Sequence record: PZ496580.1
From: a phage
Length of the DNA: 64,000 nt
Reading direction: 5' to 3' (one strand)
Shown: positions 1 to 52,423 of the stretch, piece by piece
Layout: the number at the start of each line of letters is the position of its first letter
Numbering within the stretch: position 1 is the stretch's first letter
Made by a program: the position numbers and the translations under genes
Notes under the pieces: generated by a model
What the model was told of the DNA's origin: nothing
Database searches by the model: none
The model's input: the letters and a program-made list of their open reading frames with translations, nothing else

Positions 1-251
1 AACTTTTCTTCTGCTTCTTTGATCTGCGCGGTTAACGCCTTAATGACGTGAGGATATACCACATCACGATCTGACGGCGTGGAGTAGTCGACCACAATAC
101 CTTTAGTGTCTGGATCGTATTCAACATTATGAATATAGACAATATGATGTTCTCCCTCTTCATCAACAATTATCAATTCCTGAATAACTGTCTTCATTGC
201 TTCTTGAATCAAGCTGTGTGCTTCTTCTAAACTTGTTGGTTTCTTATCCAT
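1..251 (-). CDS. partial CDS (N-terminal ~83 codons), protein at the gene-40 position downstream of uvsX
   Basis: ATG at 251 preceded by GAGGATTATATT ribosome-binding cassette; ORF runs off the window start; identity by synteny only. Confidence 0.45.
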   Translation of the reverse strand, partial: MDKKPTSLEEAHSLIQEAMKTVIQELIIVDEEGEHHIVYIHNVEYDPDTKGIVVDYSTPSDRDVVYPHVIKALTAQIKEAEEK

Positions 252-306
252 AATATAATCCTCTCTAGATATGAAAAAGGGGCACGTAGCCCCTTTACTA
301 CCATTG

Positions 307-4399: not shown

Positions 4400-4762
4400 T
4401 TAGCGTCCGATCTGATACTTTTCGATCAGTGTCCATTCTTCTTTCTGTTTGAAAGACAGTACACGGAAATTATTAACTTCGGTAGTTTCAAAATCACTAT
4501 CAATCAGGGTACACAGATTCCACTGCGCAAGAAGTTTTGCAATGTTATTACGGCGTAATTCATCTTCCCACGTCATTTTAACACTACGACCATCTAATTT
4601 CAACAACTCCTTGAAATGAACGATGTAATAGCGCCCCTTCTTCTGGAGAATATGACAAGACTGATACAGTGTCTTGTCTCGATTGTTGGTAATGCCGCAG
4701 CGGGTTAAAGTCTCCTTAATTTTAAGGAAGTTTTCAGGATTAATCAAATTAATTTCAATCAT
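4400..4762 (-). CDS. regA: RegA translational repressor of early genes
   Basis: 120 aa; recalled T4 RegA similarity (LYQSCHILQKKGRYYIVHFKE, NNFRVLSFKQK). Confidence 0.9.
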   Translation of the reverse strand: MIEINLINPENFLKIKETLTRCGITNNRDKTLYQSCHILQKKGRYYIVHFKELLKLDGRSVKMTWEDELRRNNIAKLLAQWNLCTLIDSDFETTEVNNFRVLSFKQKEEWTLIEKYQIGR

Positions 4763-11200: not shown

Positions 11201-12226
11201 CTAACTTTTTGCGCTATTTACTTCGGCTAAAAGTTCATCAGAAATACGCTTGACCGCCGCAAGTTCTTCCGGTTCTAGGTTTTGTTCTTCCAGATATTCA
11301 TAGACCATCTGAATAGTGCTTTTAACTTCAATAACACCTGTTTCCTGTGATGCGCTACTCTCCAGTTTATGGACCACTTTTAGCTTGTGTACAACGGCCT
11401 CTAACGCGCTTTCTAACTTAGTTAACCCATTATCAGCGACCGTTGCGATAAGACGCACACTAAGCCCCTTAAAGCGTTCTACATCGATTTTATCATCTGA
11501 CGGGTAAGTGATACGCACATGATAAGTTTTGTCATTCTGAATAAACTCTTTTTTGTGTGTATCGGTATCGAATACCCAAAAACCACGCGGATCGTTTTCG
11601 TCACCCGCCGTTAGTGTGTATGGTGTACCGATATACGTTACGTTACCCCCATCACTAATAGTATGAAAATGACCAGAAAACACTTCACGGTATTTCTTGA
11701 GGAAGTCCGCGCTATAACCTTCGGATTTTAGCCCTTTATAGAAATAGTAACCGGACAATTCCCAATGGCCTACACAATATTCGCTGAATGAGTTTTGAAT
11801 AAACTCTAAAATCTCTGATTTATTGTCATCACAAAACCACGGGAACAGATCAAATGATACACCATCAAAGGTAACTGTTTCTGGTTTATCAATAACCTTA
11901 ATACAATCATACTGGCTTAACACTTCACGCGGTGCGTTAGGCTGGATCTTGTTTCGTTTAAACATATCATGATTCCCGACCGTGATATAACAAGTAATAC
12001 CAGCCTCTTCCAGTAGCGGGATGATTTTCGTTCTATTAAAACGCATAGTTGCATGTGTGATTGCTTTTCGGCAATCAAACCAGTCCCCTGTCTGAATCCA
12101 TGCCTTAATATTATGTTTTTTTGAATAATCGACTGCCTTTTTAATAGTATCAAGAATATACTCATGTATCCACGGATCATCGTTGCCGATACCAGTATGC
12201 AGATCACCCAAAAGCAAAATTTTCAT
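11201..12226 (-). CDS. 47: recombination endonuclease subunit gp47 (SbcD/Mre11-like phosphoesterase)
   Basis: MKILLLGDLHTG and GNHD metallophosphatase motifs; colinear with T4 gp47. Confidence 0.9.
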   Translation of the reverse strand: MKILLLGDLHTGIGNDDPWIHEYILDTIKKAVDYSKKHNIKAWIQTGDWFDCRKAITHATMRFNRTKIIPLLEEAGITCYITVGNHDMFKRNKIQPNAPREVLSQYDCIKVIDKPETVTFDGVSFDLFPWFCDDNKSEILEFIQNSFSEYCVGHWELSGYYFYKGLKSEGYSADFLKKYREVFSGHFHTISDGGNVTYIGTPYTLTAGDENDPRGFWVFDTDTHKKEFIQNDKTYHVRITYPSDDKIDVERFKGLSVRLIATVADNGLTKLESALEAVVHKLKVVHKLESSASQETGVIEVKSTIQMVYEYLEEQNLEPEELAAVKRISDELLAEVNSAKS

Positions 12227-12241
12227 ATTATACATAATCTC

Positions 12242-12796
12242 CTAAAAATTTTTAACACCATATTCACCAAAATAAAGATCAACCGCTTTGTCATAAGCTC
12301 TGGCCGCATCTTCTTCGTTGACATAATACCCAAGAGATATTAGTTTATCATTATTTCGTATTCTTGCAACCCATTTCTTCGTATGTTTATGCCAGCTAAC
12401 CCCTTTATACTTGCTTGCTTTATTCTTGTACTTTCCAACGTTACAAGCATTTTTCTTTGCGTCGGACTCTCTAAGATTGCGCGGTGCGTTGTTTAAAGGA
12501 TTTCGGTCTATATGATCTATAATTTCTGGTTGTGTTCCATGCTCAAGAAACCATACAATACGATGTACATATGGCTTTAAAACCCTCCCATTATCCATAA
12601 CAATTGCAATTTGGAGATGATCCTGACTTTTAAAAGTTTTTACTTTATCTCCTGCCTTATAAAACTTTCCTTCGTAATTCTTTCCTCCGGCTCGGCTATT
12701 CTTTAAATGATAAAGAATACCATCGTCGTCATGTCTATATCTTTCTCGTATAATTCGTTGCGTTTCTTCATCCCACAATTTGGAACGTCTACTCAT
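12242..12796 (-). CDS. HNH homing endonuclease with C-terminal AP2 DNA-binding domain
   Basis: HNH core IDHIDRNPLNNAPRNLR; AP2-like YKGVSWHKHTKKWVARIRNNDKLISLGYYVNEEDAARAYDKA; free-standing 6 nt upstream of gene 47. Confidence 0.8.
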   Translation of the reverse strand: MSRRSKLWDEETQRIIRERYRHDDDGILYHLKNSRAGGKNYEGKFYKAGDKVKTFKSQDHLQIAIVMDNGRVLKPYVHRIVWFLEHGTQPEIIDHIDRNPLNNAPRNLRESDAKKNACNVGKYKNKASKYKGVSWHKHTKKWVARIRNNDKLISLGYYVNEEDAARAYDKAVDLYFGEYGVKNF

Positions 12797-15436: not shown

Positions 15437-15741
15437 TAGAAACCCTTACGTCGTGCTTTCTGACATTTCTTGATCATTTTATCAGAAATTTCGCGCTTCG
15501 GTGCAATCTCTTTCACACCGAAAGCACTAATGCCAAATTCAGAGAGAATATATTCAACCAACAATTCACGCACACGCGCTTTACCGATATTCACGCCGTT
15601 ATTTTTCAGATATGTCTGGCCTTCGACTTGCATCAGATCTAAATCCGCGTCGGTAATATTGATTTCTTCCATGCGCCCAAATCGAGAATAAACCATGTGT
15701 GCGATTGCATTGTGTACTAACATAATATATTCCTCACTCAA
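15436..15741 (-). CDS. hypothetical protein
   Basis: 101-aa ORF. Confidence 0.5.
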   Translation of the reverse strand: MSEEYIMLVHNAIAHMVYSRFGRMEEINITDADLDLMQVEGQTYLKNNGVNIGKARVRELLVEYILSEFGISAFGVKEIAPKREISDKMIKKCQKARRKGF

Positions 15742-16665: not shown

Positions 16666-17467
16666 TCAAAAATTCAACTTCACGACGTTTAATGTCTTCT
16701 TGAAGGTCTTTAATCTTCTGTCGATCTTGCATGATTTCGTCCATCTTGTCAAGTGCTGCAATGAAATCATCGAAACGTTCAAAGGTTTTACCTTCATTTG
16801 CTTCGCTAAATTTAACCATAGTCAGACCGTAACGACTACTAAACAGACGTTTCAACTGTCCAACGATCTTAGAATCAGTGGTTATAACTTCCAATTCTTC
16901 TACTTCTTGAAAGAATTTTCTATCAGAATCAATAAACCAGCTAGTTCCTTTATGGTCTCTATCTCCGGTTGCGCTCATTAGAGTATGGTCTTTACCATCA
17001 ATTTCAATTACATCAATTTGCCCACATGGACTAACATTTTTAACAGTAAAAGGTCTATAATTTATTGCTCGTGCAATAACATAATTAAGGTTAGATACGT
17101 TTTCAGCATAATGGCAGAAGTCGGTCATAGCCTTCGCATCTTTCCAAGTATAAGTTTTACCAACTTCCCATTTCTGGGGAACTTCTTCAACTTCACGAAA
17201 GAATTTTCTATCGAATGGACTAAAGAAATATGTTGCAGTCCAAATGTCTTTTCCTGTAGCAGTTTTCGCCGTATGATAAACACCGTCTAGCTCTATTGCA
17301 TTAATCCAACCGTTACCCTCGATCTCGATGATGGTAAATGGCTTGTCACCAATAGCTGCACTAATATCGCTGTTAAGTGGAGAAAGAACACCTTCTCCGT
17401 TAGTAATAAACTCAGTTTTAGCGTTTTCATCTTTCCAAGTGTAAGTTTTACCAATTTCCCATTTCAT
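16643..17467 (-). CDS. paralog-family protein (member A2, two tandem copies of the module)
   Basis: WEIGKTYTWKDENAKTEF and WEVGKTYTWKDAKAMTDF repeats each followed by ..PFT.. IEIDG .. DRKFF.EVEE. Confidence 0.6.
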   Translation of the reverse strand: MKWEIGKTYTWKDENAKTEFITNGEGVLSPLNSDISAAIGDKPFTIIEIEGNGWINAIELDGVYHTAKTATGKDIWTATYFFSPFDRKFFREVEEVPQKWEVGKTYTWKDAKAMTDFCHYAENVSNLNYVIARAINYRPFTVKNVSPCGQIDVIEIDGKDHTLMSATGDRDHKGTSWFIDSDRKFFQEVEELEVITTDSKIVGQLKRLFSSRYGLTMVKFSEANEGKTFERFDDFIAALDKMDEIMQDRQKIKDLQEDIKRREVEFLIGKERGW

Positions 17468-17479
17468 AATATATTCCCC

Positions 17480-19008: not shown

Positions 19009-19219
19009 TTACCCCAAACTCGTTTACAATCTGCGCTTTATAGTATCCACCGCGAGATGCTAATAGATAAGCCGGGCTTAGGTATTCGTATTCACGGATT
19101 TCTACTTGTGCGTTTTCAGTTTCCCAAATCAGTAAAGTCCACATATTTGATTCTCCTGTAAAGTTGTATCTCGTCTTGATGAATATAGTATAGGGGATCT
19201 CTCGATCCCCGTCAAGCAT
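18992..19219 (-). CDS. hypothetical protein
   Basis: 75-aa ORF. Confidence 0.45.
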   Translation of the reverse strand: MLDGDREIPYTIFIKTRYNFTGESNMWTLLIWETENAQVEIREYEYLSPAYLLASRGGYYKAQIVNEFGVIEYEF

Positions 19220-20411: not shown

Positions 20412-22274
20412 TTACATGTGCTTAACGCGGTTTACCATCTCGGAATGTTTCCCGTGGTTAAATGGACGCAGATCAACAGATCCAAGATATCCACTAACGC
20501 GACGGATAACATTCATTTTTTCCAGATTATCATTTCCGCAATCAGGGCAAACAAAACCAGACTCGGTCGCTCTCATTTCCTTAGTAGATCCGCATACATG
20601 ACACACATCAGAAGGGGTATTAACACCGAAGTAGTGCAATTTATCCATTGCATAGTCTACTACAGTTTCAAGCCCTTTAATGTTGTTTTTCATGTCTGGA
20701 AACTCAACATAAGAGATCATGCCACCGGACGCCAGCCAGTGATAGTCTTTCTCAAAGTCGATTTTCTCAAACGGTGTGACTTTCCGGTCTACGTCAAGGT
20801 GGAATGAGTTGGTGTACCAGTCTTTATCGGTAGCACCCTTAACAATACCAAATTGCTCTCGGTCCAGTCGATTAAATCGATAGCAAAGGCTTTCGGCTGG
20901 CGTACCGTAAAGACTAAACCCAAGTCCGGTTTCGTCCTTCCATTTTTCAGTATAATGACGCAAGATCTTAAGAATATGTTTACCGTATCGCTGCGCATCT
21001 TCCGAATCAAACGGATGAACACCAAACAGGACGCTCAATACCTCATGTAAACCAATATACCCAAGAGAGATACTAGCGCGACCATCTTTCAACACTTCCA
21101 AAATTTCATCGTTTTGATGAATACGGAAAAATGCACCTTCGGTATACAGTACAGGAGCAACATTGGCTTTAGCGCCTTTTAAAGCGTCTACGCGACTCAT
21201 GAGCGCATCAAAACAAATAGGCATACGATTAGCTAGCTCTTGTTCGAATAGCTCAATTCTGCGCATTACAGACGCTTTACCAGCACGACGCGCGGCAATA
21301 AGGGCAATACGCGGAAGATTCAGAGTAACAACACCTAAGTTATTACGTCCGTCTAATACTTCTTCGCCTTTCTCATTATGCCACACACCCAGGAAGCTAC
21401 GACAACCCATCGGGCTAACCGGAACACTAGATCCAGTGATACTACGGTTATTCTTCGCAGAGATATAATCAGGGTAAAGACGCTTACTAGAACATTCCAA
21501 TGCAAGTTGTTTAATGTCGTAGTTCGGATCTTCCGGTTTAAGGTTTAATCCTTCTTCTAAGAACATCACCAGCTTAGGAAACACCGGAGTTATACCATCT
21601 TTACCTAAACCTTTAGTTCGAACTTTCAGGATCGCTTTCTGAATCAGTTTTTCTTCCCAGCTAGTACCCATACCAAATGTTAAAGTCACAAAAGGTGTTT
21701 GACCGTTGGTGGAGAACAAAGTGTTGATTTCATATTCCAACGCCTGATACCCGTCTAGCGTTTCTTTTTCTGTCTTCTCTTGTGCATAGAGAGTATCAGC
21801 TTTGATTCCGTAGGTTTCGGCATCAGCAAGGTGTTTATGATATGTTTTCTCAACATACGGTGCTAACACCTGATCGATGTTTGCAATTGTGGTCCCGCCA
21901 TATTGATGACTTGCCACCTGTGCGATAATTTGAGCGGTTACAGCACAAGCAACGCCGATTGATTTCGGACTTTCGATTTGTGCGCTACCCAATTTAAAAC
22001 CATTCTCTAGCATGTCTTTTAGATTAACAAGACAGCAGTTAGTAAACGGCATAGCGGGTGCATAATCCATATCATGATAATGAATATCACCGTCTACATG
22101 CGCTTTATAGATGTGCTCAGGTAACACGGTTTTAGCAATCTGTTTAGACACAGCGCCAGCAATCAGATCTCGACGTGTCGGGAATGTTCGCGCGTCTTTG
22201 TTCGCGTTCTCTTTGCTTACTTCGTTTTCTTTACCCGTTGCGATCTCTGTAATGTCTTTGATTAGTTTTTCCAT
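20412..22274 (-). CDS. nrdD: anaerobic ribonucleoside-triphosphate reductase NrdD (glycyl radical enzyme)
   Basis: 620 aa; C-terminal Cys-rich zinc ribbon CHVCGS..CPDCG and glycyl-radical RVSGY motif; uninterrupted (no intron). Confidence 0.92.
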   Translation of the reverse strand: MEKLIKDITEIATGKENEVSKENANKDARTFPTRRDLIAGAVSKQIAKTVLPEHIYKAHVDGDIHYHDMDYAPAMPFTNCCLVNLKDMLENGFKLGSAQIESPKSIGVACAVTAQIIAQVASHQYGGTTIANIDQVLAPYVEKTYHKHLADAETYGIKADTLYAQEKTEKETLDGYQALEYEINTLFSTNGQTPFVTLTFGMGTSWEEKLIQKAILKVRTKGLGKDGITPVFPKLVMFLEEGLNLKPEDPNYDIKQLALECSSKRLYPDYISAKNNRSITGSSVPVSPMGCRSFLGVWHNEKGEEVLDGRNNLGVVTLNLPRIALIAARRAGKASVMRRIELFEQELANRMPICFDALMSRVDALKGAKANVAPVLYTEGAFFRIHQNDEILEVLKDGRASISLGYIGLHEVLSVLFGVHPFDSEDAQRYGKHILKILRHYTEKWKDETGLGFSLYGTPAESLCYRFNRLDREQFGIVKGATDKDWYTNSFHLDVDRKVTPFEKIDFEKDYHWLASGGMISYVEFPDMKNNIKGLETVVDYAMDKLHYFGVNTPSDVCHVCGSTKEMRATESGFVCPDCGNDNLEKMNVIRRVSGYLGSVDLRPFNHGKHSEMVNRVKHM

Positions 22275-22319: not shown

Positions 22320-22814
22320 TTATTTTACCAGTTCTGCTAATTCTTTTTCTTTAGCTTCTAGTTCAGCTTTAAGCTGTTTAATCTCTTGTCGCTTCTTATT
22401 AGCGGCTTCTTGCTTACTATTTCGGATAACCTGATCTAGATACAACTCCCAATCCTGAATATTTTTGATAATGTAACCGTCAACATTAATTGGTCGGAGA
22501 TTCAGTACAGCTTCCAGTTTAGTTGCAAAAACTTTAATTGCTGGGGTGAAGTATTCATATTCGTTATCTTCAAACCAATAACCTAGACTTGCATTATCAA
22601 TACGAAGACGAAGTTCAAGATCAAGGTCTTTATCTTCGGTGTATAGGTCTTTTACACCCCCCATCGAACCAACAACAACTTTAAAACGAATTTTATCAAC
22701 ACCACCAAACACATCAGTAAGGATACCAGCAATTGAGCTATTAGCGCAAGATTGGTCGCTGAATGCGTCAAGGTTTTCTTTAGTTACAGTATACCAAACA
22801 TCTTGTTTCCACAT
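22320..22814 (-). CDS. paralog-family protein (member B1), C-terminal coiled coil
   Basis: WKQDVWYTVTKENLDAFS module resembling the A-group; KQLKAELEAKEKELAELVK tail. Confidence 0.55.
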   Translation of the reverse strand: MWKQDVWYTVTKENLDAFSDQSCANSSIAGILTDVFGGVDKIRFKVVVGSMGGVKDLYTEDKDLDLELRLRIDNASLGYWFEDNEYEYFTPAIKVFATKLEAVLNLRPINVDGYIIKNIQDWELYLDQVIRNSKQEAANKKRQEIKQLKAELEAKEKELAELVK

Positions 22815-22844
22815 AATATAATCCTCTCGTTGTTAAGTGGGAGT

Positions 22845-22872
22845 ATTATAGCATACTCCCTTTGCATGTCAA
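22845..22872 (-). promoter_or_regulatory. early promoter (TTGACA-16-TATAAT) with -10 inside GGGAGTAT/ATACTCCC inverted repeat
   Basis: minus strand TTGACAtgcaaagggagtatgcTATAATactccc. Confidence 0.55.
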
Positions 22873-24047
22873 GCACGAACTTTTTTCTTTACTGCTTTCA
22901 CCTTCTGGCGAATTGCTCGAATCTCTTCGATCTCTTTTTCAGTCTCTTTAACAATTTCTTTGCGATTCTGAATATCTGTATCGAGATTATCATCAAGTTT
23001 AGGCAGCATGTCAATCAAGAACTTTTTAAAGTCTTTCAGGTTTCGGATAACAGCACCTTCACCCATTACCGCCACCCCTACACCATCCGGTAGATCACCA
23101 AACAGTTTAACCAGTTCAGACAGATGATCATGATCTTCTAGTGCTTCTTCCGGTTCAGATGGTAGTTCAACAAAGTAATAGCGTTCATCATTGCTGATCA
23201 GGTGATACCAGCAAAGCCCAAAAGATTTAGGAGTATATTCTACACCATCAACTTCAACCGCGTCAACACTTCCGAAAGAATCTACTTTAGTTACCTTAAA
23301 TCCGTGTTCCAGCTTTTGAACAATTTCAATAACATGACTGGATACGGTTTCAGTGTTAAACCAATGAGGCAAATTATGTGGATTTGGTTTGTAGCGTTCG
23401 CCCACTTTAAATCTCTGACCACGCTCTTGCATACGGACATATTCAACTCGCGTTATTTCCGCGAAGTATTCAAATTCGCTACCGTCAAACACACAAGCCC
23501 ATTGATCACAAAAACGATCCGCCTTAACAGTTTCACCTTTCGCGGTGATCATGGTAGCCGATCCGTGAAATTCTTCTTCAACTAAAAAGCCATATTCGAC
23601 AAAATCAACAAGTTTCATGGCTTCTTTGTGCTCTGGATCATGCTCTCCCCAGAATCGCTTAAATTCTTGCAAACCTTCCGGGGTAAACGAATAACATTTA
23701 CCTTTTTCAAAGTAAGTCGGCATTGCATCCTCTTTCTTGTTCATCGCTTCGTATGTCTCTTTTGAGATACGTTTAAAGTATTTGCGCTCATTGTGCATAA
23801 TCATAGTAGCCCAATAATCCACAATATCATTAGCGGAATAAACTACATCTCCAGCTTCAATAGTAATAACATGACCGTGGTCATCTTTTTCTAATACTTT
23901 AAAGCCCTTTTCTACGATTTCAGCAACCCGAATATGACCACGGCGCGAAGCATCAGTCAGAATAATTGAATAGCGAGAAAAGTCTAGAAACTCATCTTTA
24001 CCGCCTTCACGGAATGCATAGTAATGCCCTTCAAAGAATTTAGCCAT
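22869..24047 (-). CDS. paralog-family protein (member B2, several tandem copies of the module)
   Basis: 392 aa; repeated Y.F...GFKVL...G.V..IE..G..Y...ERKYFKRISK units. Confidence 0.6.
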   Translation of the reverse strand: MAKFFEGHYYAFREGGKDEFLDFSRYSIILTDASRRGHIRVAEIVEKGFKVLEKDDHGHVITIEAGDVVYSANDIVDYWATMIMHNERKYFKRISKETYEAMNKKEDAMPTYFEKGKCYSFTPEGLQEFKRFWGEHDPEHKEAMKLVDFVEYGFLVEEEFHGSATMITAKGETVKADRFCDQWACVFDGSEFEYFAEITRVEYVRMQERGQRFKVGERYKPNPHNLPHWFNTETVSSHVIEIVQKLEHGFKVTKVDSFGSVDAVEVDGVEYTPKSFGLCWYHLISNDERYYFVELPSEPEEALEDHDHLSELVKLFGDLPDGVGVAVMGEGAVIRNLKDFKKFLIDMLPKLDDNLDTDIQNRKEIVKETEKEIEEIRAIRQKVKAVKKKVRA

Positions 24048-24078
24048 AATATAATCCTCTCGTTGTTTAGATGGGAGT

Positions 24079-24107: not shown

Positions 24108-24670
24108 GCGTTAAATGACTTTTGGATCTCTTTCAGTTCAGCTACTTTATCGGCGCTATACTTTGCTTGATGTTCCATGCGCTTAAGCTCACCTTTGATA
24201 TAGGTTTCTAGCTTAGGTTTATTCTCAATCAGAAAATCTTTCAAGTCATCGGCATTTTTAAAGTATAGCTGATTATCAAAGCTAAAATCTTCCAGCGTCA
24301 ATGATACCAAAGAAGACTTCGCAAACAAGTTAATCAGATCTTCCAGAGATTCTTCTTTCTTAACTGGTTTCATTTCTTCAAACTGCTTTTTAGTGATGCG
24401 TTTAAAGTATTTGCGCTCGCTTGCATCAATCAGAATCGATGCACCCTCATAATCATGAGTTTCTACCAAATACACATTACCCATAACATTAACGGTCAGA
24501 ACTTTAAAGCCATTGCGAAGCACATCATGCAGGAATTTGTTATGTTGCGGGTATAGTTTAACAAATTCAACAGCAGCATTAGCACTACGGAAAGTGTAGT
24601 AACGGCCTCTTTCAAAAACAGCATCATTGGAAGATTTAGCCGGATATACTTTGTATGTTTTCTGCACCAT
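24104..24670 (-). CDS. paralog-family protein (member B3)
   Basis: ATG at 24670 after GAGGATTATATT; contains GFKVLTV and SERKYFKRITKK. Confidence 0.6.
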   Translation of the reverse strand: MVQKTYKVYPAKSSNDAVFERGRYYTFRSANAAVEFVKLYPQHNKFLHDVLRNGFKVLTVNVMGNVYLVETHDYEGASILIDASERKYFKRITKKQFEEMKPVKKEESLEDLINLFAKSSLVSLTLEDFSFDNQLYFKNADDLKDFLIENKPKLETYIKGELKRMEHQAKYSADKVAELKEIQKSFNA

Positions 24671-24684
24671 AATATAATCCTCTA

Positions 24685-26624: not shown

Positions 26625-27055
26625 TATCCCTTCCTCAAATAAGTTCGCTCAATCTCTACCAGTTCGAAAAAATCTTGCCAACCGCAAGGAAAATTGCAGT
26701 TTCCGAAATGATCCTCTTTGTAAAGTTCTTTACCGGATGGCAGCTTAATATCTGTTACGCTGTAGTATCCGCAACAATCGCAATCACCCTCTGTATATTC
26801 TGTTTTAGTCGGAATATCCATCATTGCCAGATACAAAGGTACATCGTCTTGCTCAAAGTTCATGTAACCTTCATGGTCAAACGAAACAAAATTGTCATCA
26901 CCACCGAAAGGGATATAATGGTCATAGTCGGTTACAGGTTGACCGTGTAATTCCCATTCTACAATTTTAATATTACCGCTAAAATTGATACCCATAATTT
27001 CAACAAGAAAATGAGTATCGTCAATGTAAATCTTACTAGGAGTTGGATAAACCAT
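26624..27055 (-). CDS. hypothetical Cys-rich protein
   Basis: 143-aa ORF; CDCCG..C..C cluster. Confidence 0.5.
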   Translation of the reverse strand: MVYPTPSKIYIDDTHFLVEIMGINFSGNIKIVEWELHGQPVTDYDHYIPFGGDDNFVSFDHEGYMNFEQDDVPLYLAMMDIPTKTEYTEGDCDCCGYYSVTDIKLPSGKELYKEDHFGNCNFPCGWQDFFELVEIERTYLRKG

Positions 27056-27065
27056 TATATAATCC

Positions 27066-27362
27066 TCATATCTCAGAGAATAGAATCTCTGTTAGCTTCA
27101 CTGACTGCTCTCTGAATGTTAGCGTATACTCGAAAGGAAAGTCAACACCTAATTTCAGAAGAGAATAGCCTACCGCCTCTTTATGCTTATCGGTTAGGGC
27201 AATCCTAACCAATTCCCGTTGAATCTCTTTAGGCGGTGAATGGATAGTAACACTGGTATCATGCAATGTCCAGTCACCATTACGAATCAAGATTAACGGT
27301 TTATCGTCATTGAAGATCACCGACCCCTTTCCGGTCGGTGAGTGTTTTATACTAATCATCAA
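27066..27362 (-). CDS. hypothetical protein
   Basis: 98-aa ORF. Confidence 0.5.
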   Translation of the reverse strand: MMISIKHSPTGKGSVIFNDDKPLILIRNGDWTLHDTSVTIHSPPKEIQRELVRIALTDKHKEAVGYSLLKLGVDFPFEYTLTFREQSVKLTEILFSEI

Positions 27363-27873: not shown

Positions 27874-28182
27874 TTATTTCACGTTAACGCCGTCATCAAT
27901 CCAGCCGACGCTATTTGGTTTAACAGTTTTACCATAGGATGCATACTTAATCAAGCATGGTTTAACATCATTATCAAATCTTCCTAAACGTACTCCAAAA
28001 TCAGGAATATCCATGTATGCGGCTTTATATCCCCATGTACCGTATTCAGAATCAATCTCAACCGGACGGCCTTTAAAAGCATACACGACACCGTGACGGT
28101 CAACGATAACATAGCAATAGCCAGCCGGAAGATACACAGTTTCGCCGTAAACTTTAACTGGAGTAGCAGAAGAGATAAACAT
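27874..28182 (-). CDS. hypothetical protein
   Basis: 102-aa ORF; ATG after GAGGATTATATT cassette. Confidence 0.55.
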   Translation of the reverse strand: MFISSATPVKVYGETVYLPAGYCYVIVDRHGVVYAFKGRPVEIDSEYGTWGYKAAYMDIPDFGVRLGRFDNDVKPCLIKYASYGKTVKPNSVGWIDDGVNVK

Positions 28183-28216
28183 AATATAATCCTCACATCG
28201 TTCATTTGATGCGGTT

Positions 28217-29257: not shown

Positions 29258-29498
29258 AGTTTACCCACTCAACAAGATCTTTACCTAACTCGAAAGCCCA
29301 TTCTCGGTCCTGCTTTACGTTTTGTAGGTATGGACTTTCCGACACTCTACGAAGTGATGTTGTCGTAACAAGAATGATCCCAGGAATGGTCGGATGTTCC
29401 TTGCCATAAACAATAGGACGCGAGTCACTATCAATACCTTGTAAGAAGGTGTATCCTGAATCACTTAGAATCATATACATTTTCATTTCACACATCAC
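29157..29498 (-). CDS. hypothetical protein
   Basis: 113-aa ORF. Confidence 0.45.
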   Translation of the reverse strand: MMCEMKMYMILSDSGYTFLQGIDSDSRPIVYGKEHPTIPGIILVTTTSLRRVSESPYLQNVKQDREWAFELGKDLVEWVNCEDKNQRNHERKIARNVHRKKLDEIKNRILQSM

Positions 29499-29752
29499 AG
29501 TTTCCTCAACCAGTTATTAAAGCGAGCAAACCATGATGCTTTTCGTGCTTCTTTTACTTTATGTGCACGAAAACCACTGAAACACCATTCATAATCATCA
29601 CCGAAACATGATTCAACAGGAACACCCGCATTTCGTAGTTCTCTGGTCTTTATCATGAATCCTTGACATAAGGGGCGACCTTCAACAATGATAGGAAGTT
29701 TAACTTTTTCCATGAAAGTATACCCAGCACGGTCAATAATTTCAATCTTCAT
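29495..29752 (-). CDS. KIEIID-family small protein (paralog 1)
   Basis: MKIEIIDRAGYTFMEKVKLPIIVEGR; ATG after GAGGATTATATT. Confidence 0.55.
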   Translation of the reverse strand: MKIEIIDRAGYTFMEKVKLPIIVEGRPLCQGFMIKTRELRNAGVPVESCFGDDYEWCFSGFRAHKVKEARKASWFARFNNWLRKL

Positions 29753-29770
29753 AATATAATCCTCAATTAG

Positions 29771-29968
29771 TTATACTGCCCATGCTTCATTTGCACGAAA
29801 ACACCATTCATACTCAGGAAAATAACCTTTAATTGGTACGCCAGCTTTTTGTAGTTCCTGCGTTTCTACAAGATAATCAAGCCCATAACGACGACCTTCC
29901 ACAATAATAGGAAGTTTAACGCCATTCATGAAAGAAAATCCACCATCATCAATAATTTCAATTTTCAT
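29771..29968 (-). CDS. KIEIID-family small protein (paralog 2)
   Basis: MKIEIIDDGGFSFMNGVKLPIIVEGR ... YEWCF. Confidence 0.55.
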   Translation of the reverse strand: MKIEIIDDGGFSFMNGVKLPIIVEGRRYGLDYLVETQELQKAGVPIKGYFPEYEWCFRANEAWAV

Positions 29969-30213: not shown

Positions 30214-30671
30214 TTTGTGATCTCCTTATACTCAACACACCATAAACGGGTCGCCCATGATAAACGCTCATAACGCTGGCAGAAATCAGACCATAGATAT
30301 TGTGTACCGTCTTGCATAGTTGAAATATGCGTTTTCTCTCCTACTTTCACGAATGAAGTATTCGATTTTGTGATCTCGACCGGAGTATATCCGAAAGCTG
30401 GTTCCAAGTCAACATCTGAACTAAATGCTAATTTAACAGAATTTGTTTTTCTGACCGCTGTCCGGTTTCCTTCTGGGTATAGCACAGCAGGTTTAGCGCC
30501 TAAGCGGATAAACTCAGTGTTTTTAATGAACAGAATATCATGATAACCGTCATATTCCGACACTTCCATAGTAACAGGAAAATCGACATGTTCTAAACCT
30601 GGTAGATCTCGCATATCATGAAATGTAGCCATCAACTTTTTCATCTTGTATTCCTCACTCTTCTGTTTCAT
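30210..30671 (-). CDS. hypothetical protein
   Basis: 153-aa ORF. Confidence 0.5.
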   Translation of the reverse strand: MKQKSEEYKMKKLMATFHDMRDLPGLEHVDFPVTMEVSEYDGYHDILFIKNTEFIRLGAKPAVLYPEGNRTAVRKTNSVKLAFSSDVDLEPAFGYTPVEITKSNTSFVKVGEKTHISTMQDGTQYLWSDFCQRYERLSWATRLWCVEYKEITK

Positions 30672-30891
30672 TTCTTTTATATGGTACTATAACAGGATTA
30701 ATACAGCAAGCACCAATTACGTTATGAGCACCACAATTTAAGCATTTATAATCATGGAACTTATTAAGGAATCGACCAAACTCATAGCCGACTAACGCCG
30801 CGTGTACTTGAGTCTCGATCTCATCCATATCAGCCAATGTTTTAACCTTCATAATATAATCCTCAAATGGTAGTTTTGCGAAGATGGTCAT
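30655..30891 (-). CDS. hypothetical Cys-containing small protein
   Basis: 78-aa ORF; CLNCG...CC. Confidence 0.45.
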   Translation of the reverse strand: MTIFAKLPFEDYIMKVKTLADMDEIETQVHAALVGYEFGRFLNKFHDYKCLNCGAHNVIGACCINPVIVPYKRNETEE

Positions 30892-33674: not shown

Positions 33675-35822
33675 TTATTCACGTCCATTTGTATAGTAGT
33701 GTTTGAATCGACCATAGCCAGTTTCAATAGACATATCCTTCTGGCGGACAATAGCCCAATAACCATTACACGAATCTTGAAGATACAAATCCTTACCTTT
33801 TAGGAACTCATTAAAGATAGTGATTTGCCAGTCATAGTAGACAGAATCTTCAAGTTTATCCATCCAACCATGCGGATCTTCCATCAATTCGACAAGCTCA
33901 TCAATCACCCAATACGGACACGGACTAAATCGACCTTTGCTAAACTCGTTAAACATAGTAACAATTTTAACTTCCGGTCTAGGTTCATCCGGTCGCACAG
34001 GACGTTTATTAACTACAACCTGAACATATTTTGTATACCCGACAATCTCGCCAGGATCTAGTTCATCGTTGCTGTTTTTATCAGCAAATGCAACAAATCG
34101 ATAAACACCAGCATCCTCTAGCGTAACGTTTGCTTTACGGTAAATCGGACTTCTTGAGTCTTCCATTTCCATTTTAACACCGTTTTTACTAAACTCATAA
34201 GTCGGAACATATGAGGCTGGCGGTTTTAGCATGGTTGCTTCTAGCGTCAGAGTATCACCTTCCGTAACCTGTACCGGATGAGGACCGTCAAACTCCATAT
34301 TCGGCACTACTTCAACATGATAGGTCGAACGACCAGCAATATCAAAATCAGTATGCGCACTAAATGGATCTTTACTCGGACTATCACGATATTCATGCGC
34401 CCAGATGCCGTTATGGTCTCGGTCCGCAGAGTCGGTGATCTTATATTCCTTAGTACCTAGCGGAAGTTCCGTTACTTTAACGTCGTTTTTGGTGATAACC
34501 AAAGTTCGCGTTTGTTCGGGATCATCACTAGCTGGCGGTTCAGGATCTACGATCTTGAGAACAATAGGTTCACCCACTTCAATATTACGATAATCATACT
34601 CTTTATCATAAATCTCAAGCATACGACGATCATAAAATAATGGGCGACCGTTAGGAATCACCTGTTCACCCGCTGGATTGGCAGGAGCAACCAACAATTG
34701 AAGCGCAACGCTGTTATCATATTGCAATCCAGATAGCGTTATCCGGTCATAACCCTCATCGCCATATTTTTTACTTTGTAGTTTCTTACCGCCAAGCATC
34801 CACGTAAAGTAAACGTTGTTAGTAAGCATACCATAATGACGATTCCATGAGCTATCGGCTTGCATCACTGGCATATCAAGGTTTACAGTAGATCCAGAAG
34901 GATAACGAAAATCAATAGCACTAAAATCACGGCTAAAAAATTCGTTTTCTTTTACGTTAACTGTAAATTGGTGTCGCTGTCCATCAATATATTGTTCACC
35001 AGATCCGGGTCCATTAACAACCTTATACGCACGAACAAAAGCAACATAAACCCCAGCATCTGACGGTTGAGCGTGTTTAGTCACGTATAGAGTCTTATCT
35101 TTAGACTCATAAACCAAGCTACCATCATTACGCTCTAGTCGATATCGGACAATAGTATATTCCGCCTGATTAGGTGCATCATCCTCTACAGTAAAATAAG
35201 CAGGTGCATATTTTTGTACGTTGAATACTTCCTTATTTTCAGTGATGTTTGCATAGAAAGGATATACAAATTTAACCTCACCATGTTCATCACTCAATTC
35301 CATTTTATATGTACCGGAAAATTCAGGCCACGCGAATTTTGCAATTTTAAATTCACGATGGTCCAACCCCAGATCACCATCAACGGAATCAACCAAACCA
35401 TCATTATAATAGAGGTCAACCGAAATATTAGGCTGGATATGACTACGAAAAACAATCTTTGCCTTGATTTCATCACCAATATTAAAAGACGTCGGCGGGT
35501 ATACATGTTCCACATATGGATTGTCAAAAAGTTCAAAGGTGAAGTTTTCCGTGCCGATATCTACGGATTCGCCAGAAAGATTTTCATCATCTTGAGCAAA
35601 ACCACGAACATTAACAGACCAACCTGTTTTATCTTCCTCTTTAACAGATTTTAGTGGAAAAGATGGACCATCTGTCATTGTGATCAACTTATCATTCTTT
35701 TTCCACAAATAACCTTTTCGTCTTTTCTCTGGGTCTTCCGACTCAGCAACAATAGAACATTCAAAAGTATGAGGAAGCCAAATTTGAGAGTTAATTGTAG
35801 TGTTTTTGATTTCTGCTGGCAT
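33675..35822 (-). CDS. large multi-domain protein with Ig-like (beta-sandwich) repeats
   Basis: 715 aa; repeated Ig-type signatures (SDAGVYVAFV, EDAGVYRFVAF); no signal peptide seen. Confidence 0.5.
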   Translation of the reverse strand: MPAEIKNTTINSQIWLPHTFECSIVAESEDPEKRRKGYLWKKNDKLITMTDGPSFPLKSVKEEDKTGWSVNVRGFAQDDENLSGESVDIGTENFTFELFDNPYVEHVYPPTSFNIGDEIKAKIVFRSHIQPNISVDLYYNDGLVDSVDGDLGLDHREFKIAKFAWPEFSGTYKMELSDEHGEVKFVYPFYANITENKEVFNVQKYAPAYFTVEDDAPNQAEYTIVRYRLERNDGSLVYESKDKTLYVTKHAQPSDAGVYVAFVRAYKVVNGPGSGEQYIDGQRHQFTVNVKENEFFSRDFSAIDFRYPSGSTVNLDMPVMQADSSWNRHYGMLTNNVYFTWMLGGKKLQSKKYGDEGYDRITLSGLQYDNSVALQLLVAPANPAGEQVIPNGRPLFYDRRMLEIYDKEYDYRNIEVGEPIVLKIVDPEPPASDDPEQTRTLVITKNDVKVTELPLGTKEYKITDSADRDHNGIWAHEYRDSPSKDPFSAHTDFDIAGRSTYHVEVVPNMEFDGPHPVQVTEGDTLTLEATMLKPPASYVPTYEFSKNGVKMEMEDSRSPIYRKANVTLEDAGVYRFVAFADKNSNDELDPGEIVGYTKYVQVVVNKRPVRPDEPRPEVKIVTMFNEFSKGRFSPCPYWVIDELVELMEDPHGWMDKLEDSVYYDWQITIFNEFLKGKDLYLQDSCNGYWAIVRQKDMSIETGYGRFKHYYTNGRE

Positions 35823-49321: not shown

Positions 49322-49978
49322 TTAAATGTTCGCGAGAATCGCGCTTTCAAATTCTTCTAATGTACCATTATTTATGATAATGGTTTCACCGTCAATAGGC
49401 ACAATTCCTTTTTCGGTGGAGTGAGTCGATACAATACCAGTATCACGCTGAATATGCAGCACCTTAGCACCCATAGAACGCATGAGAGCAATTTCAATAG
49501 GCTGACGCACATCAACCACTACAAAATACCCTTCTTCATTTTTTCGCTTCATAAACTCATTCACGAAGAGATTACACCAATAAAGCGGATTGATCAAGTT
49601 AACCATTATATCAGTACCGAGAGTGGTTAACATGAGACGAATGGACCAGACGTTATTATGTTTTTCGCCGATCTCATTAACGACCTTGTAAATCTCAGCC
49701 AGACGATCACAAGTAAAGGAACTACCGCCATACTTCGAATCTAGCATAAGCAGACACTGAATAAACCACTTATGCGCGGTATAGGTATCAATACCTAGAT
49801 CGGCTTCTCTGTCACGCCCTAACCCGTCAAAGTCAAGATAAGTCAGACCTAAGTCTGGTTGACATTCGCATAAGATTTCTTTGATCGGTGCTGCCAGTTG
49901 ATAACTATGTCCATCAATGATTAACGCGGCAGTGTCTTTTCCTACTCGCTTTTTACCACAAAGTGCAATCAATTTCAT
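49322..49978 (-). CDS. 1: deoxynucleoside monophosphate kinase gp1
   Basis: MKLIALCGKKRVGKDT P-loop; colinear with T4 gp1 (LMRSMGAKVLHIQR, TH.TE.G). Confidence 0.85.
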   Translation of the reverse strand: MKLIALCGKKRVGKDTAALIIDGHSYQLAAPIKEILCECQPDLGLTYLDFDGLGRDREADLGIDTYTAHKWFIQCLLMLDSKYGGSSFTCDRLAEIYKVVNEIGEKHNNVWSIRLMLTTLGTDIMVNLINPLYWCNLFVNEFMKRKNEEGYFVVVDVRQPIEIALMRSMGAKVLHIQRDTGIVSTHSTEKGIVPIDGETIIINNGTLEEFESAILANI

Positions 49979-49993
49979 TATATAAGCCTCTTA

Positions 49994-51058: not shown

Positions 51059-51880
51059 TTATGCATCCTTCCAAACTTTCCTTGCGTCGTATTTCTTGCC
51101 TTTTGACATAAACTGATATGTAGGCATATAGATAATATTGCTCCAGTCTTTCGGGCTAATCTCAACAAGTTTTGTTTTAATGTGTCCCGGTAGATATGCT
51201 TTGATCATGTGATCACTTCCACGCATACCTTTTACATCGCTCCATTTGATTTTTAAGCGTGTTTTATTGCTCAATGTAGGAGTAGATGCATATTGCTTTA
51301 AAAGTGCTTCCAGAAACTGCTGACGGGCTTTAGGCGTTACATAGTGTAAGTTAAGACCCAACATTACAGTATTACCCGCCTTTGTCTTAGAATCACCCAG
51401 ACAAATGATCAGCGGGAAAACATCCCAATATGGCAAAGTGTCTTTATACTTCGCATCATACATAAAGGTATAGATTCGCCCTACTTGCGGTTTTACAATC
51501 TGGTGTCCCTTTATTCCCGTTTTTATTGTTTTAGTAAACCATTCCTGTGATTTTTCTTTAGGACGACTTTTGGATACAGCACGCATAGACGCACGAAAAT
51601 CATTAATCATCATCATTGCGCGTTGCTGCTTATTGAGACCCTTTGCACTTTTCCCTTTTAGTTTTTCAACTTCTATTGCTGTTTTAATTTCGCTGGCATA
51701 ACGAGACATACTTTTAGTGAAAGTCGCATAGGCTATTCCCTTAGAATCTGCAAATACTTTAGCTGTCATGCCTTTGGCTTTTGCTTTCGCAAATTCTACA
51801 CCCAATTCGACCCACTGTTTAGACTTTCGTTTTTGGGGAGACGGCTTTTCGTCTTCTGTGATTATTTCAAATACGCTCAT
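51059..51880 (-). CDS. 2: DNA end-protector protein gp2 (candidate)
   Basis: 273 aa, basic; position and orientation match T4 gene 2; no motif verified. Confidence 0.5.
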   Translation of the reverse strand: MSVFEIITEDEKPSPQKRKSKQWVELGVEFAKAKAKGMTAKVFADSKGIAYATFTKSMSRYASEIKTAIEVEKLKGKSAKGLNKQQRAMMMINDFRASMRAVSKSRPKEKSQEWFTKTIKTGIKGHQIVKPQVGRIYTFMYDAKYKDTLPYWDVFPLIICLGDSKTKAGNTVMLGLNLHYVTPKARQQFLEALLKQYASTPTLSNKTRLKIKWSDVKGMRGSDHMIKAYLPGHIKTKLVEISPKDWSNIIYMPTYQFMSKGKKYDARKVWKDA

Positions 51881-51891
51881 AATATTATCCT

Positions 51892-52368
51892 CTATTTGTT
51901 AAGCCCTTTAAAGCCAAACACTTTCTTTAATGCATGTTCGGTTATGATCTTAAACTCCATGTTATGCTTTTGGCACAAATCAACCGCAGCTTTCCACTTT
52001 TCCGTGTTTACAGTATATGTGTAACACTCTTGCATATATCTTTGCTTAGTCTTAGTGGTTATTCTTTTTGGCCTTTCCGGTGGCCTTGTCTCTTTTGCTG
52101 GTTTTATTTCCCATAAATGCTCTTTACCATCATCAAACTTAACGTATATATCCATGTAGTAGCGCCTTTTTTTGTTATCGGCGCTGGACCAGTATGGAAT
52201 CACTACGGTCTCTGACCCCCATTTAGCGACTCTAGGGTTACGGTCTAGCCACTTAAAAATGTGCAACTCCCAGCTTGACCTATACGTTATTTTATGCAAG
52301 TTATTCCCTTTGTACTTCTCAGGATTTTCCGGTCTATACTTGCCCTTATAAGTGTTAGATCCTCCCAT
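51892..52368 (-). CDS. 4: head completion protein gp4 (candidate)
   Basis: ATG at 52368 with AGGGTGCTAAA upstream; size ~158 aa and divergent arrangement with gene 53 as in T4. Confidence 0.5.
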   Translation of the reverse strand: MGGSNTYKGKYRPENPEKYKGNNLHKITYRSSWELHIFKWLDRNPRVAKWGSETVVIPYWSSADNKKRRYYMDIYVKFDDGKEHLWEIKPAKETRPPERPKRITTKTKQRYMQECYTYTVNTEKWKAAVDLCQKHNMEFKIITEHALKKVFGFKGLNK

Positions 52369-52391: not shown

Positions 52392-52423
52392 CATAATAAT
52401 ATTTATCAATTGAGGGTGCTAAA

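Follow-up and report, generated by a model that had tools for sequence, protein, structure and literature searches.

A recurrent 15-nucleotide start-site sequence on early-strand genes of a Krischvirus phage

A discrete class of translation-start sites on the early strand

The stretch of DNA analysed here, 64,000 nucleotides of a phage genome (sequence record PZ496580.1) and hereafter called the window, belongs to a Krischvirus, i.e. a T4-type coliphage of the RB49/Phi1/JSE group. Part of its minus-strand genes begin with the same 15-mer, GAGGATTATATTATG, whose last bases are the ATG of the gene. These sites, which we call class A, are a genuine and discrete class of translation starts, which does not result from chance, does not depend on a promoter and is restricted to the early strand. 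We consider it possible (about 40%) that class A marks a post-transcriptional regime, in which the messages would not be substrates of RegB and would be subject to a RegA-type competition with the ribosome, short-homology recombination having helped the sequence to spread. Between positions 22000 and 30000, the window shows 96% identity to Phi1 and 94.7% to RB49; over 25 kb, the closest complete record is phage Brandy (96.6%). Pre-replicative genes occupy the minus strand up to about position 52,400 (uvsX, 43, regA, 62, 44, 45 ... tk, regB ... 1, 3, 2, 4), and late baseplate genes lie on the plus strand beyond this position. Gene starts were compared from the 275 annotated in Phi1 and from 119 in the window, the latter being transferred from the Phi1 annotation.

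Seven exact copies of GAGGATTATATTATG are present in the window, with the first base of the ATG at 251, 22814, 24047, 24670, 28182, 29752 and 30852. Seven further copies display one or two mismatches. All 14 are on the minus strand, as an earlier note made from the sequence alone had said of the sites it listed, and each of them terminates in the ATG of an open reading frame (ORF) of at least 65 codons that matches an annotated Phi1 gene. Dinucleotide shuffles of the window predict 0.37 copies with up to two mismatches (2 in the top shuffle) instead of these 14, and the 11-mer AGGATTATATT was found 8 times for 0.08 expected.

We also used a null model in which each position column of the start sites was shuffled independently, so that the Shine-Dalgarno (SD) consensus and the AT-richness are preserved. 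From the 119 mapped starts of the window, this model predicts 0.023 exact 12-mers, whereas 6 were observed (7 in the window overall). From the 275 starts of Phi1, it predicts 0.03 exact copies, 0.5 copies with one mismatch and 2.9 with two, for 9, 9 and 8 observed, respectively. Class A represents about 26 of the 275 Phi1 genes (~10%). By our calculation, the observed numbers agree with one sub-population of about 26 genes, in which identity to an archetype is about 92% per position. In addition, TTATATTATG occurs 13 times in Phi1, each time at an annotated start. An origin of class A by chance or composition is ruled out by both the dinucleotide shuffles and the column-shuffled start sites. 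The earlier note had claimed that the conservation goes beyond what a Shine-Dalgarno sequence needs, and the motif is indeed in excess over AT-rich composition and SD consensus taken together.

The exact copies precede genes of various kinds. The first (249..263, start 251) belongs to the orthologue of gene 40 and is situated behind a terminator-like hairpin. The second (22812..22826, start 22814) opens a 164-amino-acid (aa) ORF, orthologous to ORF057, and forms the 3' end of a promoter-early stem-loop (PeSL) cassette, a type of element described in RB49 and Phi1 (Arbiol et al. 2010, PMC2839356; Comeau et al. 2014, PMC4122927). The core of this PeSL (22839..22872, minus strand) comprises a -35 box TTGACA (22872-22867), a -10 box TATAAT (22850-22845) and a stem-loop GGGAGTAT/ATACTCCC overlapping the -10 box. 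The third copy (24045..24059, start 24047) opens frd.2 (392 aa) and also follows a PeSL, with a leader homologous to that of 22814. The copy at 24668..24682 (start 24670, ORF059 orthologue) has no promoter; the upstream stop codon is at most 14 nt away. The one at 28180..28194 (start 28182, ORF068 orthologue) lies behind a PeSL promoter and forms the 3' end of this PeSL. The last two are at 29750..29764 (start 29752, ORF073 orthologue) and 30850..30864 (start 30852, orthologue of ORF077, 65 aa).

Among the variants, those with a single mismatch are GAGGAATATATTATG (15721..15735, start 15723, orthologue of gene 55.2), GAGGATTATATAATG (27053..27067, start 27055, ORF064 orthologue, with an intergenic gap of 10 nt), GAGGTTTATATTATG (38334..38348, start 38336, tk.4), TAGGATTATATTATG (44568..44582, start 44570, ORF109 orthologue, for which the other genomes compared have GAGG) and GAGGATAATATTATG (51878..51892, start 51880, gene 2). 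Two variants have two mismatches: GGGGAATATATTATG (17465..17479, start 17467, ORF049 orthologue, 274 aa) and GAGGCTTATATAATG (49976..49990, start 49978, gene 1, encoding a dNMP kinase). This inventory modifies the list of nine supposedly identical sites given by the earlier note: seven are exact, 27055 and 44570 are one-mismatch variants, and the sites at 15723, 17467, 38336, 49978 and 51880 have to be added. Moreover, the start that had been placed at 30891 lies in fact at 30852, an ATG in the same frame that agrees with the annotated start of the orthologue ORF077 in Phi1. Class A marks true start codons and can mend annotation, as in this case (30852 rather than 30891).

Anatomy and genomic context of class A

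At the RNA level, class A (GAGGAUUAUAUUAUG) consists of a GAGG Shine-Dalgarno sequence and the AUG, with an 8-nt spacer free of G and C between them, and it spans positions -12 to +3. The pairing of GAGG with the anti-SD has an energy of -5.6 kcal/mol, and its distance to the AUG is 8 nt, two properties of a Shine-Dalgarno sequence. The flanking sequences, 5' of GAGG and 3' of the ATG, are unrelated from one copy to another, except for kindred PeSL leaders such as those of 22814 and 24047, which have the whole leader (promoter and stem-loop) in common in addition to the start site. A longer hidden repeat around class A is ruled out on this basis. The reverse complement (CATAATATAATCCTC) holds a perfect TATAAT hexamer, so that every class A site could also serve as an antisense -10 element on the plus strand.

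Class A is found independently of promoters. With a lenient rule (at most two mismatches summed over the two hexamers), a sigma70-like promoter was detected within 150 nt upstream of only 11 of the 26 class A genes of Phi1. The intergenic gap is of 25 nt or less for 16 of these 26 genes, which leaves no room for a promoter. By inspection, stem-loops were found at 22814 and 24047 (GGGAGTA.../...TACTCCC) and at 28182 (GCGGTTAT/ATAACCGC), and none at 24670, 27055, 29752, 30852, 38336, 44570 and 49978. Furthermore, all 26 Phi1 sites are on the minus strand, while none of the 47 plus-strand genes has one (P = 0.008). Class A shows no preference for ORFans, which account for 17 of the 26 class A genes and for 148 of the 229 early-strand genes. 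The core genes with a class A start are rIIA, 40, 55.2, frd.2, tk.4, 1, 2, cd and frd.

These features separate class A from the PeSLs. Both are found in the same phages as repeated intergenic sequences ending in SD and ATG, a modular shuffling of genes has been proposed and partly shown for the PeSLs, and the class A copies at 22814, 24047 and 28182 form PeSL 3' ends. However, a PeSL combines a sigma70 promoter and a stem-loop over about 100 bp, whereas most class A copies lack both and consist of 15 nt placed directly after a stop codon. In addition, the usual PeSL start site belongs to another class (GGAGAATCAAA, discussed below), and PeSLs favour positions upstream of ORFans in hyperplastic regions, a preference that class A does not share. 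An identification of class A with PeSLs was therefore rejected, promoter and stem-loop being wanting at most copies and ORFans not being preferred.

The reuse of class A could also reflect a pure cis-acting optimum of translation, in which the best E. coli ribosome-binding site (RBS) would have been reached by convergence, through position preferences or S1 binding, without any trans-acting regulator. The consensus by position of the 160 other early start sites (class A and the other class removed) is ...GGGG.TATATT-ATG, with a spacer TATATT identical to that of class A, and the consensus of the 41 late start sites (...TATATA-ATG) is close to it. Class A is therefore the archetype of the start sites of this phage and not an arbitrary sequence. 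Moreover, A is the majority base at position -3 in every start-site class (56-59%), and core genes and ORFans carry class A equally, which also speaks for this explanation. Several observations go against it. None of the 47 late-strand genes has class A, and the structural genes with the highest expression are among them. The energy of the SD duplex (-6.4 kcal/mol for class A vs. -6.6 for the other early genes) and the predicted unpaired probability (0.48 vs. 0.46 for the other early start sites) do not differ significantly, which rules out a stronger or more accessible RBS as the explanation. Position preferences acting independently give 0.03 exact copies in Phi1, and not 9.

Finally, T4 infects the same host and behaves differently. 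In its first 50 kb (88 annotated starts; L146 in our set), which served as a control, every 12-mer preceding a start codon is unique and any 8-mer is found at most twice. Its spacer consensus is A-rich (GAGGGAATAAA-ATG), whereas that of Krischvirus alternates T and A (TATATT-ATG), although the host is common to both. As T4, our one comparator, has the same host ribosome, a RegA and a RegB and yet no exact reuse among these starts, neither the ribosome nor RegA as such imposes it. On the whole, a pure cis optimum seems rather unlikely to us.

A second, promoter-linked class and RegB

The other class of start sites, which we call class B, is defined by GGAGAATCAAA(A)ATG and comprises 28 start sites of Phi1 and 10 of the window (minus strand; first bases of the ATG at 19144, 24957, 28849, 31153, 32315, 33568, 45505, 46460, 48016 and 48460). 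All 28 Phi1 members are located behind a PeSL early promoter, with homologous leaders and a median intergenic gap of 75 nt, and nearly all are ORFans. Class B surpasses class A in both SD pairing energy and predicted accessibility. The earlier note had already set class A apart from a class with AGGAGAATCAAAATG linked to the promoter cassette, and this promoter-linked class can be separated from class A in Phi1 as well as in the window.

Class B resembles the sites of the endoribonuclease RegB. In T4, the strong RegB sites have the consensus GGAGRAYARAA (Uzan and Miller, PMC3014915). At least 10 of these 11 positions are matched by 23 of the 28 class B sites of Phi1 and by none of the 26 class A sites, which match at 7-8 positions. 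Only 4% of the class A sites contain GGAG; they display GAGG/GGAU followed by a U-rich tail, and not the A-rich RAYARAA context. Judging from the match of class B, PeSL-driven ORFans would constitute a RegB regulon, with the RegB of the window (39395..39817, minus strand, PF10715) as its likely reader. Class A and the RegB sites are alike in being stereotyped sequences of the SD region present on many early genes and, putatively for class A, in defining a post-transcriptional regulon; they differ in that the RegB consensus fits class B and not the GAGG/GGAU and U-rich tail of class A.

The start site of regB is itself informative. In the window, its SD region (39818-39836, minus strand) is GGAGAATAAAA and carries GGAGAAUAAAA, which matches the strong RegB consensus at 11 of 11 positions. 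This perfect match in front of regB accords with an autoregulation of RegB, as known from T4. Phi1 has GGAT where the window has GGAG.

Class A might also be a ribonuclease processing site, cut by RegB at GGAU or by the host RNase E in AUAUU, in which case the common sequence would programme the inactivation of the mRNA. RNase E has a loose preference for single-stranded A/U, which AUAUU would fit. GGAU is present in class A, and the regB SD of RB49, which is also GGAU, is reported to be cleaved in vivo (PMC3014915). Nevertheless, class A fits no more than 7-8 of the 11 positions of the RegB consensus, its sequence context on the 3' side is rich in U and not in A as stimulation by S1 needs, and the same genome possesses, with class B, a far better RegB-like class. 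Such a processing site is very improbable.

Recombination at start sites

The earlier note had suggested that class A could be a recombination hotspot. We catalogued the indels between about 15-20 genomes over two 20-kb stretches (~40 kb) and obtained about a dozen of them. None uses an exact class A copy as a junction. The suggestion is borne out only for a sister repeat (GAGGAATA...), with two crossover points; at exact class A copies, no event was seen among the ~12 indels.

The sister repeat flanks a 72-aa gene, which is present in L136 (7500-7760), L141 and Makalu_001 and absent from the window. On either side of this cassette stands the 31-nt direct repeat ACAGAAGAGTGAGGAATA[T/C]A[G/A][A/G]ATGAA, which covers the last codons and the stop codon of a gene as well as SD, spacer and ATG of a start site. 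In the window, the empty site corresponds to the translation-initiation region (TIR) repeat ACAGAAGAGTGAGGAATACAAGATGAA (30640..30666, minus strand). Of the genomes without the 72-aa gene, L138 possesses the left-type start site, and L137 and the window possess the right-type one, which implies at least two independent crossovers inside the 31-nt repeat. In a second event, a single gene was deleted from start site to start site. In a third case, a gene encoding a 184-aa HNH and AP2 endonuclease (12242-12796, minus strand) is inserted in the window directly after the ATG of gene 47; it takes the former start site of gene 47 and gives this gene a new one (TAGGAGATTATGTATAATATG). This insertion is absent from Phi1 and corresponds to ORF040c in RB49. 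The remaining indels are insertions of homing endonucleases, recombinations between paralogues or internal deletions.

These events bear on a historical explanation of class A, in which it would be a recombination linker or a promoter-less remnant of PeSLs, crossovers in short homologies (e.g. excision and re-insertion of mini-circles) having duplicated the start site at module junctions. The two crossover points in the 31-nt repeat, the start-to-start deletion and the swap of start sites at gene 47 all argue for it. For PeSL mini-circles, mapping placed the crossovers in the interval from the -10 box to the SD or ATG (PMC2839356), and degraded half-PeSLs have been reported near indels (PMC4122927). 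In the window, the sites at 22814 and 24047 share a whole PeSL in addition to the start site. The copy at 29752 lies in an island of 18 identical positions out of 18, with a sharp loss of homology on both sides relative to a divergent allele (flanks at ~70% identity by eye, L143 vs. L138). The absence of exact reuse among the 88 T4 starts parallels the lineage-specific abundance of PeSLs. Conversely, the dozen indels, mostly due to homing endonucleases or to paralogue recombination, do not have exact class A copies as junctions, ORFans are not enriched, and syntenic core genes (rIIA, cd, 40, frd, 1 and 2) also carry class A. Furthermore, an identity of 15 nt without flanking homology cannot be spread by gene conversion, and adjacent class A pairs are only mildly over-represented (5 vs. 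~2.8 expected, by a hand count on gene order). We see a purely historical origin as doubtful, while giving it a real chance.

Boundary or linker sequences are also found at the module junctions of the mosaic lambdoid phages. Like class A, they are short conserved sequences at gene boundaries and possible guides for recombination. Unlike them, class A is also a functional ribosome-binding site, and direct evidence of crossover concerns only its sister repeat.

Two other rearrangements were observed. In the window, two small paralogous genes are in tandem on the minus strand (29495-29752 and 29771-29968, ~71% DNA identity); several relatives possess a single hybrid of the two, recombined in their common 5' coding sequence, with the loss of one class A start. 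In Krischvirus LF73P4 (OZ035795.1; L134), the equivalents of Phi1 positions 123,670 and 42,581 are joined at ~12005-12094 through about 90 nt that align to both. This overlap is intergenic, upstream of ORF210 and ORF070, which both have an upstream sequence of class B/PeSL type. It corresponds either to a large rearrangement mediated by recombination or to a misassembly at a repeat.

RegA and a possible post-transcriptional regime

The candidate trans-acting reader of class A is RegA, which the earlier note had recognised in the window. The gene (4400..4762, minus strand) has a clear PF01818 match (6e-54), and its product aligns with T4 RegA (PDB 1REG) at 1.6e-47. The RNA-binding residues K14, T18, R21, W81 and F106 are conserved, while R91/T92 fall in a 2-aa gap. 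According to the review literature, RegA acts on about 30 T4 mRNAs, at A+U-rich sites that are free of secondary structure, overlap the AUG or lie next to it, and follow no strict consensus. The operators described there include AAAUUAUG for gene 44 and AAAAUUAUG for rIIB, with AAAAUUGUUAUGUAA as the consensus obtained by SELEX in T4; the RegA of RB69 selects UAA repeats, and the natural operators of T4 and RB69 are degenerate.

Class A occupies the interval from SD to AUG that is footprinted by RegA proteins, its spacer is A/U at 8 of 8 positions, and it is limited to the early strand. As to structure, its predicted unpaired probability (0.48) does not set it apart from the other early start sites (0.46). 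Its sequence AUAUUAUG resembles the T4 operators of gene 44 (AAAUUAUG) and rIIB (AAAAUUAUG), and its 3' part (…GAUUAUAUUAUG) has UUAUG in common with both operators and with the SELEX consensus. Exact class A sites open rIIA and cd in Phi1; gene 1 carries a near copy, the start site of gene 44 shares GAUUAUAU with class A, and that of rpbA is three mismatches away. rIIA, cd and gene 1 are members of the T4 RegA regulon. Genes 44, 45, rIIB, regA and rpbA count among the conserved RegA targets. The likeness to the T4 and RB69 operators concerns the position (between SD and AUG or overlapping AUG), the A+U-richness, the early and middle mRNAs concerned and the size of the regulon (~30 T4 targets vs. 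~26 class A genes). The differences are that T4 RegA favours a 5' poly(A) and RB69 RegA UAA repeats, whereas class A alternates U and A, and that natural sites are degenerate, with no exact consensus. From these comparisons, class A is a plausible RegA operator. Moreover, RB49 has neither motA nor middle promoters (PMC1524935), which makes a larger role of post-transcriptional control in timing plausible.

The post-transcriptional regime that we favour would work as follows. Class A, the archetypal RBS of Krischvirus pre-replicative genes, acts in cis as a self-contained start module that needs no promoter and is found directly after the stop codon of the preceding gene or at the end of a PeSL leader. 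It would be retained as the label of one regime, through selection on the exact sequence. Lacking GGAG and the A-rich RegB consensus, class A messages would outlast RegB; they would then be shut down when RegA, bound to the A/U-only interval between SD and AUG, competes with the ribosome. Short-homology recombination between start-site repeats, which does occur, would help to copy and retain the module.

A more elaborate version, which we regard as speculative and improbable, is a two-channel RBS code timing the pre-replicative genes of Krischvirus, which has neither MotA nor middle promoters. In this scheme, class B (GGAGAAUCAAA), carried by the PeSL-driven ORFans, would make up the RegB regulon and undergo early cleavage and silencing. 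A sequence-specific repressor, RegA or another protein, would use class A (GAGGAUUAUAUU) as its operator on about 26 genes including rIIA, cd, frd, gene 1 and gene 40, and the 15-mer would double as a portable junction for cassette exchange.

We compared the variation of class A spacers with that of other spacers. From seven comparison sequences besides Phi1, class A spacers showed 2 changes over 104 columns, for 9.1% elsewhere (p = 0.011). Ten further genomes were then obtained by exact-protein look-up, which gave 17 comparison sequences. With this larger set, 6 of 56 class A columns are segregating vs. 37 of 256 in the other spacers (p = 0.53), and the nucleotide diversity is 0.015-0.022 for class A vs. 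0.033-0.039 for the others (p = 0.1-0.25). A strong additional purifying selection on class A is therefore not established, the initial p = 0.011 leaving place to a non-significant trend. The class A site at 28182 (ORF068) is identical in all 17 sequences compared (Phi1 and 16 genomes). Natural variants are tolerated at other sites: ORF077 (start 30852) has a T>C at -2 in 4 of 18 genomes and ORF064 an A>G at -1 in 3 of 17, and single natural variants also exist at the class A starts of ORF059 and frd.2. The 18/18-identical island at 29752 and a spacer diversity of about half that of other genes hint at constraint. In our reading, some constraint acts on class A, but it does not demonstrably exceed that on other start sites.

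The loss of significance with the larger set and the tolerated variants weigh against the regime proposed above, and so do several other points. T4, which has RegA and RegB, shows no exact reuse among its 88 starts examined; as known RegA operators are also degenerate, RegA binding alone need not yield a letter-perfect identity. No more than 7 of the 12 positions of the T4 RegA SELEX consensus are matched by class A, and the Phi1 orthologues of the classical T4 RegA targets 45, regA, rIIB, 62 and 56 have no class A site. Concerning RegB, since the GGAU of the RB49 regB is reported to be cleaved in vivo and class A contains GGAU, a resistance of class A to RegB is predicted from the T4 rules only.

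We also searched for class A outside these genomes. The 15-mer was found at 120 loci or more in IMG/VR, almost always as a single copy and mostly in AT-rich contigs of unknown affiliation, a distribution that is uninformative on other T4-like genera. A protein search of IMG/VR retrieved two Krischvirus contigs. For distant cd orthologues, protein identity drops from at least 95% directly to at most 80%.

Relation to described elements and significance

The class A start sites are apparently undescribed so far, with a kinship to the conserved intergenic expression cassettes of T4-type phages. The PeSL papers mention SD and ATG at the 3' end of PeSLs in a generic way, without singling out the class A motif or its independence from promoters (PMC2839356, PMC4122927), and the 2010 paper mentions neither RegB nor GGAG (PMC2839356). 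Within the literature available to us, a search for the class A and class B strings returned no phage paper containing either. A GAGG core on the early genes of a T4-type phage is not peculiar to class A. Malys is said to have described, in 2012, a preference of T4 early genes for GAGG-type Shine-Dalgarno sequences. This preference concerns the 4 nt of the SD only, whereas class A also fixes the 8-nt spacer letter for letter.

If the two classes do act as separately addressable types of RBS, the gene lists of post-transcriptional regulons could be read from any Krischvirus genome sequence, many of these phages being candidates for therapy, and the ordering of the early programme in a T4-type phage without middle-mode transcription would be explained. 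The crossovers in start-site repeats extend the PeSL model, in that cassettes can be gained and lost through promoter-less repeats of about 30 nt. Class A is also a compact and portable RBS. If it is merely a historical or efficiency feature, it would be a neat but unremarkable trait of a single phage genus.

Another variable locus of the window is a 715-aa ORF (33675-35822, minus strand), for which we found only a sub-threshold Ig-like match. Several metagenomic relatives also possess it intact. An internal stretch of this ORF is deleted in Phi1, with a microhomology of 9-10 nt at the junction, and RB49, Makalu_001 and others have a larger internal deletion of about 1.96 kb.

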